Shown here piece after piece: positions 2,114 to 55,985 of a stretch of 64,000 bases of DNA. A model generated the notes under the pieces. It did not search any database, was not told the origin of the DNA, and was given only the letters and a program-made list of their open reading frames with translations. Origin of the DNA: an uncultured Planctomycetales bacterium (GTDB lineage: Bacteria > Omnitrophota > Gorgyraeia > Gygaellales > Profunditerraquicolaceae); NCBI GenBank assembly GCA_964456925.1, contig CAYWCX010000001.1:10800-74799 (forward strand), given 5' to 3'. The translations under genes were made by a program, and so were the position numbers. Every line of letters begins with the position of its first letter. Position 1 is the first letter of the stretch.

Positions 2114-2845
2114 TTATTTTTTTAACTTCGCTGTCAGGATAAGTCCGGTAACGGCAACGATAAAACCCGCGATGCTTAAAATATGAAAGATGGTCAAGCC
2201 AAAAATAAGCGGGAGGTTATCGGCCCTAAAAGATTCTATCAGAAATCTTTTGGCGCAATAAAAGAGAAGGTAGAAGAAAAAAATCTGGCCGTCGCGGTGC
2301 GGCCGTTCGCGCAGTAATCTTAAAACAATAAAAATAAGGAACAACAGCAACGAAGAATAAAGCTGGGTAGGAATAAGGGTGGCGTCGTGCGCCGGAAAAT
2401 AAATCCCGAACCGCGAAACCTTACCGAAACAGCAGCCGTTTAAGAAACAACCGAGTCTGCCGATTGCCTGCGCAAGGGCAAGATACGGAGCAATAAGGTC
2501 TGCTACCTTGCCGAGGGGGAGTCTTTTCTTTTTTAAATATAGCAAGCCGCTGGCTATCCCCAGGATTAAGCCTCCGAACCAGGAGAGCCCTCCCTGCTGC
2601 AGCATGATAATCTCAAGAGGGTTCTTGAGATAATAAAAGAGGTTATAACCGACGTAGAACAGGCGCGCGCCGATAATGCCCGCGATAAATACCAGAAAAC
2701 AAAGGTTGAAAATAACTTCAGGCCGGACGTTAATCCTGGGGGCCTGGCGGCTGGCTAAAAAAGACCCCAGCATAAAAGCGATTGCCAGCATCAGCCCGTA
2801 GGAATAAATATGGAAGATTCCTATTTTACAGATTACGGGATACAT
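2114..2845 (-). CDS. lgt: prolipoprotein diacylglyceryl transferase
   Basis: Polytopic membrane protein of 243 aa with an Lgt-like N-terminus (MYPVICKIGIFHIYSYGLMLAIAFMLG). Sits in the conserved ileS-lspA-lgt-rluD neighbourhood. Confidence 0.8.
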   Translation of the reverse strand: MYPVICKIGIFHIYSYGLMLAIAFMLGSFLASRQAPRINVRPEVIFNLCFLVFIAGIIGARLFYVGYNLFYYLKNPLEIIMLQQGGLSWFGGLILGIASGLLYLKKKRLPLGKVADLIAPYLALAQAIGRLGCFLNGCCFGKVSRFGIYFPAHDATLIPTQLYSSLLLFLIFIVLRLLRERPHRDGQIFFFYLLFYCAKRFLIESFRADNLPLIFGLTIFHILSIAGFIVAVTGLILTAKLKK

Positions 2846-2848
2846 AAC

Positions 2849-3286
2849 TTATGTCTTTTTCGGCTTTAAAATAGAGTAACCCAGAAGTACCGCTCCGACG
2901 GTAATGGCGCTGTCTGCAATATTGAATACCGGCCAGATGCGTAAATCCAGAAAATCAATTACATAGCCGAACACAATACGGTCAATGAGGTTACCCAGCG
3001 CGCCGGCCAGGACGAGGCCAAGCGCAACTGCGGGAAGAGAAATTTTTCTCCACCCTTGTTTTTTTAGATTAAGATAGATTAATATTACGGCCAGTATCGC
3101 GGTAAGGATAAAAAATAAAACCCCCCCCTTGAATAAGCCGAAGGCCGCCCCGCGGTTGTGCACGAGGCTCAACTGCAATACGCCCTTGATGACGGGTAAG
3201 CTCTGATGAGGGGAAAGGGATTTGCTGACCAGGAGTTTGGTGCCCTGGTCCAATAGGAGAATAGATAATACGATGATGAAGACCAT
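2849..3286 (-). CDS. lspA: lipoprotein signal peptidase II
   Basis: 145 aa with four TM segments. Carries the conserved NRGAAFG and FNIADSAI motifs. Confidence 0.9.
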   Translation of the reverse strand: MVFIIVLSILLLDQGTKLLVSKSLSPHQSLPVIKGVLQLSLVHNRGAAFGLFKGGVLFFILTAILAVILIYLNLKKQGWRKISLPAVALGLVLAGALGNLIDRIVFGYVIDFLDLRIWPVFNIADSAITVGAVLLGYSILKPKKT

Positions 3287-3303
3287 CGTAAAAATAGCCT
3301 AGG

Positions 3304-3687
3304 TTATTTCTTCTCTTTTTTTTCCTGGCATTTTACGCAAAGAGAGGCTTGGGGAAGGGCCTTAAGTCTGGTCTTGGAGATGGACGCCTTACATTGTTCA
3401 CAGATACCGTAGGTGCCGTCCTCTATTTTTTTCAGGGCGTCGTCTAAAACATAAAGCAACTCCCGTTCGTTGGAAGCCAGACCCAGGGAAAACTCCCGGT
3501 CGTAATTGTCGGTGGCGACATCCGCCATATGGTAGGCATAACCCGAAATGTCCCCCGAGGCCTCCTTCTGGGATTTCTTCAGGACATCCTCGGAGAGGCT
3601 TTTAATCTCATCAAGGATATCCTCTTTTTTCTTGAGGATAATCTTTTTGAATTCCGCCAGCTCTTTTTTGTTGAATTTCTTTTTCAA
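3304..3687 (-). CDS. DksA/TraR-family C4 zinc-finger regulator (comparable to B. subtilis YlyA)
   Basis: 127 aa with an N-terminal coiled coil and C-terminal CEQC...CVKC. Sits between ileS and lspA as in Firmicutes. Confidence 0.75.
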   Translation of the reverse strand: MKKKFNKKELAEFKKIILKKKEDILDEIKSLSEDVLKKSQKEASGDISGYAYHMADVATDNYDREFSLGLASNERELLYVLDDALKKIEDGTYGICEQCKASISKTRLKALPQASLCVKCQEKKEKK

Positions 3688-34004: not shown

Positions 34005-34005
<1 letters not shown>

Positions 34006-34277
34006 CAGAAGGCAATCGTGAAATCTTTAAATTCTCCGCTGGCCGGCTGCCACTCAATCTCGGTATCCTGAATATAGCGGGAAAAATACTGTGTGATTTT
34101 GTCTAAGAATTTTTTCAGGGTCTCTTCGGGCGCTTCGGCGAGAATCTCTACCCTGGAGTCGCCAAGGTTCTTTATCCACCCCGAAACGCCGAATTCCTCG
34201 GCAATACTTCTGGCGGTGAAACGAAACCCCACCCCCTGTACTCTGCCGCTATAATATGCATGCACCTGCTTTTTCAT
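34005..34277 (-). CDS. acyP: acylphosphatase
   Basis: YSGRVQGVGFRF and GWIKNLGDSRVE acylphosphatase signatures. The track ORF starts at a GTG at 34331 and adds an 18-codon extension that overlaps repeat C3. The internal ATG at 34277 (MKKQVHAYYSG) is preferred. Confidence 0.8.
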
Positions 34278-34302
34278 AGAACGCTTTAACGGGCCCTCAC
34301 TT

Positions 34303-34489
34303 GGTCTAATTTTAGGTTTTGCTTCCGGCACGGAAAATTTTTGCCGTCTGCTTCGGTTTACGGCTCGCTCCCGTAAAGACTATCGCCGACACGACATACT
34401 CCCGCTCGCCGTAATCCCTCGCAGACCCAAGCAAAAATAAGATGTCAAAAATTTTCTAATGTGCCTCCAGCAAAATCCTAAAATTTACC
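34303..34489 (-). repeat. Palindromic repeat element copy C3, in inverted orientation relative to C1 and C2
   Basis: Minus-strand reading is GGTAAATTTTAGGATTTTGCTGGAGGCACATTAGAAAATTTTTGAC...GAGGGATTACGGCGAG...CCGTAAACCGAAGCAGACGGCAAAAATTTTCCGTGCCGGAAGCAAAACCTAAAATTAGACC. It has the same architecture and conserved blocks as C1/C2, but its helices are rewritten in a compensatory way. Confidence 0.8.
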
Positions 34490-34529
34490 ACGCTAAGTTA
34501 CCCGTTAATCCTATAGCTGATTACGCTCT

Positions 34530-34701
34530 ATAATTTATGCGTTTCGCTGGAGCGCACATTAGGATTTTTACGGTAGGAGTGCGCAAGGGATTACGCCGAA
34601 CGAAAGGTGGCGAGCCCGCGTTAGCATACTGCCCGAAAGAGAGGCGTAAACCGTAGCGCACGGCGTAAAAATCCAGTGCACGGAAGCGAAAGCATAAATT
34701 A
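34530..34701 (+). repeat. Palindromic repeat element copy C2; its end lies about 4 nt from the tRNA-Pro 3' end
   Basis: ATAATTTATGCGTTTCGCTGGAGCGCACATTAGGATTTTTACGGTAGGAGTGCGCAAGGGATTACG...GTAAACCGTAGCGCACGGCGTAAAAATCCAGTGCACGGAAGCGAAAGCATAAATTAAAA. Its 5' and 3' halves are reverse complements. Confidence 0.85.
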
Positions 34702-34704
34702 AAA

Positions 34705-34782
34705 TGGTCGGGGCGGACAGACTTGAACTGTCGACCTCTTGGTCCCGAACCAAGCGCTCTAGCCAAACTGAGCCACGCCCCG
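34705..34782 (-). tRNA. tRNA-Pro (anticodon CGG)
   Basis: Minus-strand sequence CGGGGCGTGGCTCAGTTTGGCTAGAGCGCTTGGTTCGGGACCAAGAGGTCGACAGTTCAAGTCTGTCCGCCCCGACCA folds as a cloverleaf. Acceptor arms are CGGGGCG/CGCCCCG, the D arm is GCTC/GAGC, and the anticodon stem is CTTGG/CCAAG with loop TTCGGGA. The T arm is GACAG/CTGTC with TTCAAGT, and the CCA end is encoded. Confidence 0.92.
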
Positions 34783-34852
34783 TTACAAAAATAATTGTTT
34801 AAATTAGTATAACAAAAATAAGGCGGGTGCGCAATCTTTAAGTTATGTTAAC

Positions 34853-35434
34853 TTAAGAAACCGCGGCGGCTTTTTTGGCGAGGATATCGAATTCGACATT
34901 AACCAAGGCAGAAGGCTCCTTGAAACCCAATGTCGTGTTTTTTAAGGTGTGCGGTATAATATAAACGCTAAAAGTTGCGGACTTCTTTTCGGTAATAGTC
35001 AAGCTGATGCCGTCTAGCGCAATCGAGCCCTTTGGCAGAACAGAAGCGATAAACTTCGGCGGCACCGCAATCTCAAAACAGAGATTACTGTTCTCGTAAC
35101 CCTTACGGCGTATCACTCCGAGACAATCCACATGCCCTAATACAAAATGCCCCGAGATTCTATCGCCGACCTTAAGCGGCCGTTCCAAATTTACCATCTC
35201 GCCTATTTTTAGCTTTCCGAGGTTGGTAAGTTTCAGGGTTTCGGGCATGACCTCAAAGCTCAAGGTATCCGCGGTTTTCTTTATTACCGTAAGGCAGGCG
35301 CCGTTAACTGCAATGCTGTCGCCTGTCCGGCTATCTTCCAAGACCTTGTCAGCCTTAATCTCCAGCAGCGTCACCCTTGCGGCAGGAGATATTCTTTCTA
35401 CTTTGCCTAACTCTTCGATAATGCCGCTAAACAT
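34853..35434 (-). CDS. ribE: riboflavin synthase alpha subunit
   Basis: MFSGIIEELGKV N-terminus with duplicated lumazine-binding repeats. Confidence 0.9.
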   Translation of the reverse strand: MFSGIIEELGKVERISPAARVTLLEIKADKVLEDSRTGDSIAVNGACLTVIKKTADTLSFEVMPETLKLTNLGKLKIGEMVNLERPLKVGDRISGHFVLGHVDCLGVIRRKGYENSNLCFEIAVPPKFIASVLPKGSIALDGISLTITEKKSATFSVYIIPHTLKNTTLGFKEPSALVNVEFDILAKKAAAVS

Positions 35435-38261: not shown

Positions 38262-39470
38262 CTAAATATTTAAATCGTGGCCGAGTTTTTCCTTTTTGGT
38301 CTTGAGATACTGATAGTTGGCCTTATTCGGCTCCACCTCCAAAGGAACGCGCTCCACGACCTTTAGATTATAACCTTCCAACCCTACAATCTTGCGCGGA
38401 TTATTGGTAAGAAGACGGATATTTTTTAATCCCAGGTCTGCCAGGATCTGGGCACCGATGCCGTAATCCCGCAGGTCCGGCTGATATCCCAGGGCTTCGT
38501 TCGCCTGCACCGTATCCAGTCCGTTATCCTGCAGGTTATAGGCGCGGATTTTATCAATCAATCCGATTCCGCGGCCCTCCTGGCTCATATAGAGGATTAC
38601 CCCTTTTTTCTCTTTCCCGATAATCTGCATTGCCTTCTTTAATTGCCTGCCGCAGTCGCAACGCAAAGAACCAAAAACGTCTCCGGTAAGGCACTCCGAA
38701 TGCACCCGCACCAGGACCGCCTCTTCACCCCAGTTCCCCATCGTAAGCGCCGCGTGTATCTCATTCTTGATGAGGTCGCGGTAGAGGATAAACCGGTAGT
38801 TACCGAACTCCGTAGGCAGGGTAGTTTCTGAAATTCTTTCAACAAGCCTTTCAGAGCGCCGGCGGTATTCGATGAGGTCGGCGATAGAACAAATCTTAAG
38901 CTGATGCCTTTGGGAAAATTCCAGAAGCTGGGGTAAGCGCGACATCGTACCGTCATCGTTCATAATCTCGCAGATTACCCCTGCCGGATACAGCCCGACC
39001 AGTTTCATCAGGTCTATGGTGGCTTCGGTATGCCCGGCGCGCACCAGTACCCCGCCCTTGCGGGCCTTGAGCGGAAAAATATGGCCCGGCCGCACCAAAT
39101 CTTCGGGCTTGGTATCGGGGTTAATCAGGACCTCGATGGTGCGGGCGCGGTCCTGGGCAGAAATACCGGTGGTAATCCCACGTGCGGCATCCACTGAAAT
39201 CATCCAGGCAGTAGAAAAAGGGTCTTTTTTATGCGAGGGTTCGCTGCCGTTTAACATCGGCTGCAGCGCCAGTAACCTCAACCTCCCTTCCTCCATAGGC
39301 ATACAGATAAGCCCGCGGCCAAACTTCGCCATGAAGTTAATATCCTGCGGCCGTATGAATGAAGAAGCCATTACCAGGTCGCCTTCATTTTCGCGGTCCT
39401 CGTCATCAACCACAATGACCATTTTGCCTTTTTTTAAATCTTCCAAAATTTGCGGAATCGTATTGAACAT
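38262..39470 (-). CDS. ribBA: bifunctional 3,4-dihydroxy-2-butanone-4-phosphate synthase / GTP cyclohydrolase II
   Basis: N-terminal DHBP synthase (VVDDEDRENEGDL) and a C-terminal GTP cyclohydrolase II with a Cys zinc site (CDCGRQL). Confidence 0.92.
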   Translation of the reverse strand: MFNTIPQILEDLKKGKMVIVVDDEDRENEGDLVMASSFIRPQDINFMAKFGRGLICMPMEEGRLRLLALQPMLNGSEPSHKKDPFSTAWMISVDAARGITTGISAQDRARTIEVLINPDTKPEDLVRPGHIFPLKARKGGVLVRAGHTEATIDLMKLVGLYPAGVICEIMNDDGTMSRLPQLLEFSQRHQLKICSIADLIEYRRRSERLVERISETTLPTEFGNYRFILYRDLIKNEIHAALTMGNWGEEAVLVRVHSECLTGDVFGSLRCDCGRQLKKAMQIIGKEKKGVILYMSQEGRGIGLIDKIRAYNLQDNGLDTVQANEALGYQPDLRDYGIGAQILADLGLKNIRLLTNNPRKIVGLEGYNLKVVERVPLEVEPNKANYQYLKTKKEKLGHDLNI

Positions 39471-39485
39471 AAGAATTACCCTCTC

Positions 39486-39668
39486 AACAAAAAACCCGAA
39501 GAGACAATCTTCGGGTAAATAAACACTGCGCCTTTAATCTCCTCCCCTCTGGACTTTACCATCGGCTCTGGAATTTCGCCAGATCTACCCCTGCTGTTTT
39601 CAAGCAGCGGGGGCTCGCGGGCTTAACCGCCGGTCAGGAATTCCACCTTGCCCCGAAGATTAACGTAA
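39486..39668 (-). promoter_or_regulatory. FMN riboswitch (RFN element) with intrinsic-terminator expression platform, in the ribBA leader
   Basis: Minus-strand RNA AAUCUUCGGGGCAAGGUGGAAUUCCUGACCGGCGGUUAAGCCCGCGAGC...GGCGAAAUUCCAGAGCCGAUGGUAAAGUCCAGAGGGGAGGAGAUU matches the FMN aptamer consensus (UCUUCGGGGCAGGGUGAAAUUCCCGACCGGCGGUAGUAAAGC ... GCCGACAGUGAAAGUCUGGAUGGGAGAAGGAU). Downstream lies the hairpin CCCGAAGAUUGUCUCUUCGGG followed by UUUUUUG, about 16 nt before the ribBA start. Confidence 0.9.
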
Positions 39669-55558: not shown

Positions 55559-55639
55559 TGTTGCGATACGTAAGGCTATTTTTTTAGTATCTATCGCTCT
55601 CTCCCCCTTAAACTGCTTTTGGTACCCCGTTATTTAATA

Positions 55640-55680
55640 ATGCCGGAGGCTGAACTTGGTATCAGTCCCTCCTCCGGCAT
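55640..55680 (-). terminator. GC-rich 10-bp hairpin (AUGCCGGAGG ... CCUCCGGCAU) downstream of the small zinc-ribbon gene; possible terminator lacking a clean U-tract
   Basis: Perfect 10-bp stem with an inner CUGA/UCAG extension, followed by UAUUAAAUAA on the minus-strand RNA. Confidence 0.35.
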
Positions 55681-55729
55681 ACCTTTAAACTTTATTATAT
55701 TAACAATCCGTCTTTAGACAAACGGCTGG

Positions 55730-55879
55730 TTATTTCGTTCCCAGAATCTTATACATTCCCGTGCCGCAATCAGGACATTTGCCCTTCACCGCAAGGCGGC
55801 CGTTCTTCATCGTAACCTTCTGTTCGTCTTTCATCTCCTTTTTGCCTTTGCACTTGACGCAATATCCTTTTTCTGCCAT
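55730..55879 (-). CDS. unannotated 49-aa zinc-ribbon protein (MAEKGYCVKCKGKKEMKDEQKVTMKNGRLAVKGKCPDCGTGMYKILGTK); resembles widespread ~50-aa CxxC...CxxCG proteins, possibly DUF5679-like
   Basis: Found by manual translation; it falls below the 60-aa cutoff of the ORF track. AAGGAGG RBS lies 5 nt upstream of the ATG. Has its own promoter (TTGACA, 17 nt, TAAGAT) and two CxxC pairs. Confidence 0.7.
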   Translation of the reverse strand: MAEKGYCVKCKGKKEMKDEQKVTMKNGRLAVKGKCPDCGTGMYKILGTK

Positions 55880-55906
55880 TGCTTCCTCCTTTTTGCAATT
55901 TTTTCT

Positions 55907-55935
55907 ATCTTATCACAGCTTCTATGCCGTGTCAA
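55907..55935 (-). promoter_or_regulatory. promoter for the small zinc-ribbon gene: TTGACA, 17-nt spacer, TAAGAT
   Basis: Minus-strand reading is TTGACAcggcatagaagctgtgaTAAGATagaaaaaattgcaaaAAGGAGGaagcaATG. Confidence 0.5.
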
Positions 55936-55985
55936 TGTCGCTTAAGTTATTATAGAGTGATATTATACAATAAAAAAACAGCGGG

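Follow-up and report, generated by a model that had tools for sequence, protein, structure and literature searches.

The stretch examined here, 64,000 nucleotides (nt) from an uncultured bacterium labelled Planctomycetales and placed by GTDB in the Omnitrophota (GenBank assembly GCA_964456925.1, contig CAYWCX010000001.1, positions 10,800 to 74,799 of the forward strand; hereafter the window), carries two hairpin-forming sequences, which we call C3 and C2, between a tRNA-Pro gene and acyP. Annotation with Pfam, ARAGORN and Rfam gave the minus-strand order ribD, ribE (riboflavin synthase alpha chain, 34853-35434; Pfam Lum_binding, 1.4e-46), tRNA-Pro(CGG) with an encoded CCA (34705-34782; ARAGORN, and 64.3 bits with the Rfam tRNA model), 472 nt of non-coding DNA, acyP (acylphosphatase, 75 aa, 34005-34232; Pfam PF00708), a metallophosphoesterase gene and ligA. 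The non-coding interval holds one full-length repeat copy on each strand, C3 at 34304-34492 (minus; cmsearch 154 bits, E 7e-39) and C2 at 34525-34703 (plus; 131 bits), so that the sense strand of C3 runs parallel to the flanking operon and that of C2 antisense to it. The two copies face each other 5′-to-5′ across a spacer at 34493-34524, a gap of 32 nt by the ends of the covariance model and of about 40 nt by the last base pairs. An original prediction, made from the letters of the window, had placed two facing elements beside tRNA-Pro, and sequence, nhmmer and the covariance model all put C3 and C2 there; it also had C2 ending about 4 nt from the tRNA-Pro CCA, which agrees with the last paired base at 4 nt, the model end lying at 1 nt. 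A third copy, C1 (8986-9164, plus; 119 bits), occupies the ftsA-yggS spacer, antisense to both genes, with a terminator-like hairpin and a yggS promoter-like site downstream. Repeat search, nhmmer and the covariance model agree on exactly three copies in the window, and zero chance matches were expected in the motif searches for these elements. The three copies differ pairwise by 23-35%, yet all are intact. C2, C3 and C1 are diverged members of an interspersed repeat family of Candidatus Omnitrophota for which we found no earlier description.

One copy measures about 150-200 nt (typically about 180), and a single strand of it folds as one long irregular hairpin of about 60 pairs. Folded as RNA, C3, C2 and C1 reach minimum free energies of -72.4, -73.2 and -75.6 kcal/mol, with z-scores against shuffled sequences of -6.9, -6.1 and -6.9, respectively. 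The outer stem varies in sequence among copies, its pairing always being kept; inward of it come a stem of the GCGCAC/GTGCGC type, an asymmetric loop with AUUAG opposite CA, and an A/U-rich stem. About half of the copies carry a T-rich bulge of 15-24 nt, present in C3 and absent in C1 and C2, and the subfamily of C3 is marked by a T-rich bulge of about 16 nt after GACA together with a GTCTGC/GCAGAC inner stem. Beyond the bulge lie a second stem of 6 bp and a 3x3 loop, AAG opposite GNA, which belongs to a conserved core: AAG-GGGAUUACGGCGA on one strand and GAGCCGUAAACC-GNA on the other. The core helix GGAUUACGGC/GCCGUAAACC contains an A.A mismatch and is followed by tandem G.A pairs and a variable apex. 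In C2, the 5′ strand of the core is GGGATTACG at 34587-34595 (plus), comprising the AAG internal loop and then the helix with the A.A mismatch, and the 3′ strand is GTAAACCGTAGCGCACGGC at 34646-34664 (plus). The central internal loops are thus both conserved and asymmetric, and the ends are the most variable part of the element.

The family extends well beyond the window. When the core pattern GGGATTACG-N35-65-GTAAACCGNAGNNNACGGC was scanned over one genome per species, a search in which about 0.03 matches would be expected by chance (our own estimate, not tool output), it matched 74 loci from 39 assemblies; the label was almost always Candidatus Omnitrophota, and a single metagenome-assembled genome (MAG) often had several loci. 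The few other labels, Planctomycetales and Pseudomonadota among them, may be artefacts of automated classification or binning. A covariance model built from the 74 copies and run over the loci, about 0.9 Mb in total taken as 8-kb pieces, returned 81 sense copies at 89-163 bits, and the same sites scored at most 27 bits on the reverse strand; the element is therefore directional despite its hairpin form. Subfamilies coexist in single genomes. Nine copies are cut at a sequence end, in several cases a true contig end; assemblies often break at repeats in this way.

No described family accounts for these sequences in the collections that we searched. At gathering thresholds, Rfam matched only an FMN (flavin mononucleotide) riboswitch and tRNA in the whole window. 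With Rfam 15 at E values up to 10 over both element regions, nothing overlapped C1 or C2, and a snoR4 overlap on C3 (19 bits against a gathering score of 60, E = 5.6) was taken as noise. Eleven related loci gave only tRNAs in Rfam, the phage, plasmid and IMG/VR viral collections held no match to the repeat, and full-text literature searches on repeats, miniature inverted-repeat transposable elements (MITEs) and RNA motifs in Omnitrophota or Omnitrophica yielded no description of it.

The hairpin structure is under selection. Compensatory double changes were found at 19 of the 29 consensus pairs; one pair, for example, reads CG 32 times and GC 29 times, and a second reads UA in 27 copies, AU in 22 and GC in 15. 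Standard pairs fill 94.9% of cells, compared with 79.1% in 500 shuffles (none of which reached the observed value) and 30-46% with slid partners, and the covariation score of 0.401 compares with 0.135 for the shuffles and no more than 0.12 for slid partners. Part of the invariance of the core comes from the search pattern itself; secondary copies found by the profile alone carry a compensated core variant, GGCUUUACAG/CUGUAAACC. One specific strand is favoured, as RNA or as single-stranded DNA (ssDNA). In 72 of the 74 copies, the sense strand gives the better fold of the two strands (mean -84.9 versus -75.9 kcal/mol; Wilcoxon p = 2e-13, from tests that are not independent, the copies being related), because of its purine-rich loops and G.A pairs.

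We then compared the ribD-ribE-tRNA-Pro-acyP-ligA locus among relatives. A metagenome scan with RibE returned 80 loci, about 30 of which, at RibE identities of 56-74%, keep the order ribD-ribE-tRNA-Pro(CGG)-acyP-ligA. In twelve syntenic relatives (L084, L086, L087, L090, L092, L095, L097, L102, L104, L113, L123 and L128) the end of tRNA-Pro is separated from the acyP ATG by only 4-36 nt, as in CCA-TATT-ATG in L095 and CCA-ATATC-ATG in L113, versus 472 nt in the window, and C2 and C3 are therefore insertions. That they are inserted copies of the repeat family in particular is, in our judgement, close to certain. An insertion into an ancestral spacer of 4-36 nt must abut the tRNA, which explains why C2 touches its end. 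The sequence between C3 and C2 is likewise absent from the empty-site relatives, and it is partly conserved beside the copy in L079. In this closest relative (RibE 74% identical), the same spacer contains a copy oriented as C2 is, with a similar outer stem and a partly conserved flank; the copy is 65% identical to C2, with five A/U-stem positions changed on both sides, a comparison that points to an old insertion kept intact or refreshed by conversion. Elsewhere in the locus, a copy lies about 11 nt after ribE in L132 and about 230 nt after ribE in L111. The mobility that had been proposed for the elements, which belong to a multi-copy family, is thereby supported by the empty sites in twelve relatives, by the other copies in the window and in 39 assemblies, and by the different positions within this one locus. 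In L111, where the tRNA-Pro/acyP synteny is lost, an IS256/Mutator-family transposase gene (2248-3444; PF00872, E 2e-92) lies about 200 nt downstream of the post-ribE copy; we considered it as a partner of the repeat and judged it to be a separate insertion.

All copies are intergenic. Among 58 copies, 48 lie between co-directional genes, 28 of them opposite to those genes in orientation and 20 in the same orientation. By eye, the typical site is a few tens of nt past the upstream stop codon and farther from the next start. Genes next to the copies at five loci are ordinary, non-mobile ones (UvrA, an ABC transporter, a TPR protein and CBM_11 among them), and seven neighbouring proteins that were scanned had ordinary domains or no significant match, none of them matching a transposase family. 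The terminal stem differs between subfamilies.

Copies less than 50 nt apart are always arranged 5′-to-5′, a minus copy followed by a plus copy, in the window (34304-34703), in L062 (1726-2112) and in L077 (5239-5659), and L023 shows the same arrangement at a distance of 476 nt. The probability that three of three further pairs would share the window arrangement by chance is about 1/64, which is suggestive only. The members of the three close pairs differ from each other in subfamily-level features, and the arrangement may stem from a preference in insertion, from a composite unit or from instability of inverted copies that are nearly identical. L023 also has a truncated copy at 2148-2185, consisting of the 5′ part (GGTTTGTTCCGGAGCGCACATAAAGAATTTTTT, minus strand) and directly adjoining an intact copy at that copy's 5′ end; the truncated copy is possibly an older one interrupted by a later insertion.

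Taken together, the repeat is multi-copy, non-coding, intergenic, found in either orientation, hairpin-forming, and present or absent among relatives, and on this basis we think it probable that it is a non-autonomous structured intergenic repeat of the ERIC, REPIN, Correia and bcr1 kind, spread as a mobile repeat. Such a non-autonomous family would insert into short intergenic spacers, usually just past a stop codon and in either orientation, with a putative trans-acting factor recognising the folded sense strand and its asymmetric conserved loops, as ssDNA or as RNA. Once inserted, a copy is predicted to ride on the transcript of the flanking operon and to form a hairpin of about 60 bp in either orientation, probably serving there as an RNA-processing, stability or insulating structure. 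An RNA-level role of this kind would explain how old, diverged copies stay intact in a very compact genome.

Several observations weigh against spread as a mobile repeat. Conservation peaks at the centre of the element and is lowest at its ends, a pattern opposite to that of a classical MITE defined by terminal inverted repeats (TIRs) and commoner in functional RNA. Neither a target-site duplication nor a sharp common terminus was seen in the flanks of about 80 copies or in 12 paralogues with 110-nt flanks, and neither a parent element nor a cognate enzyme was found, with no split or open reading frame (ORF)-containing copy in the roughly 0.9 Mb of loci. Unbiased sequence yielded 6 intact copies versus about one marginal hit, so that degenerate copies are rare, and this rarity, together with intact copies at 23-35% divergence, argues for selection on each copy and not for pure selfishness. 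Finally, G-U mismatches outnumber A-C mismatches 39 to 17 over all pairs, but omitting the poorly aligned outer helix reduces the counts to 22 and 14; the excess is then weak, and we dropped it as proof of an RNA strand.

We compared the family with the known systems nearest to it. ERIC or IRU sequences are elements of 127 nt in Enterobacteriaceae and Vibrionaceae (Hulton 1991; Wilson and Sharp 2006; De Gregorio 2005). The Omnitrophota repeat resembles them as an imperfect palindrome of more than 100 nt that is strictly intergenic and lies in either orientation in transcribed regions, with its best-conserved part at the centre, a family shared across genera and, as predicted here, an RNA hairpin on the host transcript. 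It differs in having no sequence similarity to them, a length of about 180 nt, a host phylum of its own, clearly asymmetric loops and a model that separates the strands by more than 60 bits. No transposase is known for either. REP units are 20-40 nt long with a conserved GTAG, REPINs are doublets with conserved ends, and RAYT (TnpA-REP) proteins are the transposases of this system (Nunvar 2010; Bertels and Rainey 2011; Ton-Hoang 2012). Common to these elements and the Omnitrophota repeat are hairpin formation between genes, compensatory changes that keep the hairpin, a lack of target-site duplication, inverted doublets and long-term persistence, but a single Omnitrophota unit is already a 150-200-nt hairpin with a conserved centre and falls outside the definition of a REP. 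No RAYT (Y1 HUH) gene was seen among the seven neighbouring proteins scanned.

Defined TIRs and duplications (TA, TTTAT) mark the Correia or NEMIS elements found in Neisseria and the bcr1 elements of the Bacillus cereus group (Correia 1988; De Gregorio 2002; Okstad 2004; Kristoffersen 2011). Like the Omnitrophota repeat, they are non-coding intergenic repeats, of 100-160 nt, with subfamilies and with presence or absence between strains; unlike them, the Omnitrophota repeat shows no duplication and has its terminal stem as the most variable part. Correia and bcr1 elements are co-transcribed with their neighbours, and their hairpins can be processed by RNase III, a behaviour that the Omnitrophota copies may share. 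With classical MITEs the repeat shares short length, lack of coding capacity, multiple copies, complementary ends and insertion polymorphism. It departs from them in being complementary throughout, kept by covariation and conserved in an internal part, with no duplication seen and no parent insertion sequence with matching ends in the loci examined.

The most serious alternative is that the copies are multi-copy, phylum-specific non-coding RNA genes, transcribed independently from the sense strand, whose loops bind a protein or ligand and whose gains and losses are incidental turnover. A conserved core with strongly covarying helices and a variable periphery is the usual signature of a functional RNA, and the discrimination between strands, the better folding of the sense strand with its tandem G.A pairs and purine-rich loops, and the survival of old, diverged copies intact in a genome whose spacers are often shorter than 50 nt all fit such genes. 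The ends of the copies, however, carry no conserved promoter-like or terminator-like signal, and three copies per 64 kb extrapolate to tens or more per genome, unusual for a trans-acting RNA gene. The truncations at contig ends, the coexisting subfamilies, the truncated copy abutting an intact one and the insertion past stop codons are likewise those of a repeat, and we regard independent RNA genes as a possible but unlikely explanation.

A bolder proposal, which we advance only tentatively and with rather low confidence, is that the repeat is a phylum-specific functional single-stranded nucleic acid, either RNA or, during mobilisation, ssDNA, with its core as the docking site for a dedicated putative protein. 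If true, it would represent either a new hairpin-dependent mobilisation system that uses neither TIRs nor duplications, or a multi-copy RNA module domesticated for regulation or insulation, and the recurrent 5′-to-5′ doublet of the window, L062 and L077 could be the functional unit. The core, GGGAUUACGG / CCGUAAACC, offers a bait for the protein that moves or uses the repeat.

Improbable to a greater degree is the reading of C2 and C3 as non-mobile regulatory hairpins of the host, serving tRNA-Pro and the rib operon as a terminator or as a signal for processing. Long, stable hairpins do stand directly after the tRNA and before the next gene, and other copies usually lie a few tens of nt past an upstream stop codon, with C1 in the ftsA 3′ region. 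But on the minus strand no T-run follows either hairpin, and a scan of 34150-34950 for terminator-like sites on that strand was negative at the ends of C2 and C3, so that the terminator for tRNA-Pro that had been suggested is not supported. Twelve relatives run the same operon with a spacer of 4-36 nt and no hairpin, and the 28-to-20 split in orientation and the phylum-wide homology imply copying, not local evolution. A promoter at the TATAAT of C2 fared no better, with zero promoter-like sites in 34150-34950 and no -35 partner. The hexamer itself is present at the start of C2 as predicted, at 34529-34534 (plus) and not at 34527-34532; it falls within the outer stem, at the place where C1 and C3 have TAAATT.

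Least credible of all is the original idea that C2 and C3 form, or remain from, a mobile element integrating site-specifically into the tRNA-Pro 3′ end. In its favour, the CCA is 1-4 nt from the end of C2, the tRNA end and the sequence just past C3 share GACCA (a match of only 5 nt), and the same tRNA end is used by another small element with an attachment-site (att)-like duplication in 5 of 40 loci in relatives. Against it, contact with a tRNA 3′ end is seen for 1 of about 85 copies, C1 and 81 others lying between protein genes, no direct repeat of the tRNA-Pro 3′ end was found within 900 nt downstream in the window (16-nt probe, at most 2 mismatches), no integrase adjoins the copies checked, and the ancestral spacer was too short for any insertion to miss the tRNA. 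ARAGORN on all loci identified the window C2, with identical copies in L001-L003, as the only copy abutting a tRNA 3′ end; in L012 and L033, the copies are on the tRNA 5′ side. The genes around C2 and C3 (ribD, ribE, acyP, the metallophosphoesterase gene and ligA) include no integrase, and the sole gene with a Phage_integrase domain, about 4 kb from C3 among ordinary genes, was taken as a candidate XerC/D-like gene. With tRNA-targeting integrative elements the family shares one copy at a tRNA 3′ end and a locus whose tRNA-Pro end serves another small element, and it differs from them in having no att duplication, no integrase and its other copies away from tRNA 3′ ends. The position of the copies beside tRNA-Pro looks incidental.

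That other element is a second, unrelated insert lying directly after tRNA-Pro(CGG) in relatives: L079 (4845-4975), L081 (5079-5260), L109 (4844-5100), L117 (1422-1620), L120 (4798-5350), L122 (1642-1790) and L131 (1435-1580), and also L115 and L129. It is 100-300 nt long, has no integrase and no Rfam match, and is absent from the window. Its motif reads GAGCAGATGA-hairpin-TCATAGGCCG-GNRA-GGCCGTCTGCGAnnTAATCC, or TTAAATGAGC...GAATTTAATCC. In L081, L120, L122 and L129, the final 16 nt of the tRNA recur after the insert, unchanged and in direct orientation; L115 has such a repeat with 2 mismatches, and L109 has the 3′ end of another lineage's tRNA-Pro allele. This duplication of the tRNA end is an att-like signature of site-specific integration. 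With the hairpin repeat and this insert, the tRNA-Pro/acyP junction has repeatedly received small elements of at least two unrelated types in this clade.

Other readings were considered and rejected. As a guide to flanking DNA, in the manner of a bridge RNA, the T-rich bulge gave longest matches of 6.34 nt versus 6.40 nt in a permuted control. A small ORF or type I toxin was rejected on the alignment, since copies with and without the bulge do not keep a common frame. A hairpin-ribozyme loop B (AUUAC / AAAC), a sigma-54 -24/-12 box in the bulge, a CsrA GGA site, 6S RNA and retron msr/msd were also weighed as resemblances; each fails on spacing, key residues or copy number, or for want of any Rfam signal.

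Omnitrophota are uncultivated, ultra-small bacteria with compact genomes, and to our knowledge no non-coding repertoire has been described for them beyond Rfam hits. The repeat family explains unusually long spacers and contig breaks in Omnitrophota MAGs, and its copies offer markers for strain-level insertion polymorphism. A ready covariance model also prevents mis-annotation, examples being the ORF at 34521-34766 and an over-long acyP. The former and a second spurious minus-strand ORF, at 34568-34753, cross C2 and the tRNA. The 108-aa acyP ORF (34005-34331) that runs into C3 is likewise an artefact, its segment 34233-34331 being a false N-terminal extension; the true start is the ATG at 34232, which is kept in relatives, and C3 lies 71 nt upstream of it with no overlap with the gene.

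In some MAGs, copies of the repeat sit among other short repeats, which blurs their ends. The short conserved sequences CGAGCGAATGGAGGTTTTAGCC, GCGGGTGGCTTGGGTGTTTTCGAGC and GGGCACCGTGCCCGCTCGAATCGGCGAGGCTTTTCTCAAAACCTGCCAGGGCTGGCAA recur beside hairpin repeats in different MAGs (L048, L069 and L078, in 5′ flanks; L021, L030, L036, L070 and L132; L011, L033, L037, L038 and L043), and Omnitrophota spacers seem to hold several repeat families that cluster together.

Within the window, a greedy ORF map places 58 of 65 ORFs on the minus strand, and most spacers are shorter than 50 nt or overlapping; the C1 spacer (364 nt) and the C2/C3 spacer (472 nt) are among the few long ones. The FMN riboswitch lies at 39533-39664 (minus, 111.5 bits), upstream of a 402-aa ORF at 38262-39470 whose counterpart at the same position in L002 has DHBP_synthase and GTP_cyclohydro2 domains (ribBA); the riboswitch therefore heads the rib operon, an ordinary arrangement. 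An apparent gap of 427 nt at 55559-55985 is not a repeat and contains a zinc-ribbon-like ORF of about 49 aa at 55735-55880 (minus), MAEKGYCVKCKGKKEM...CPDCGTGMYKILGTK.

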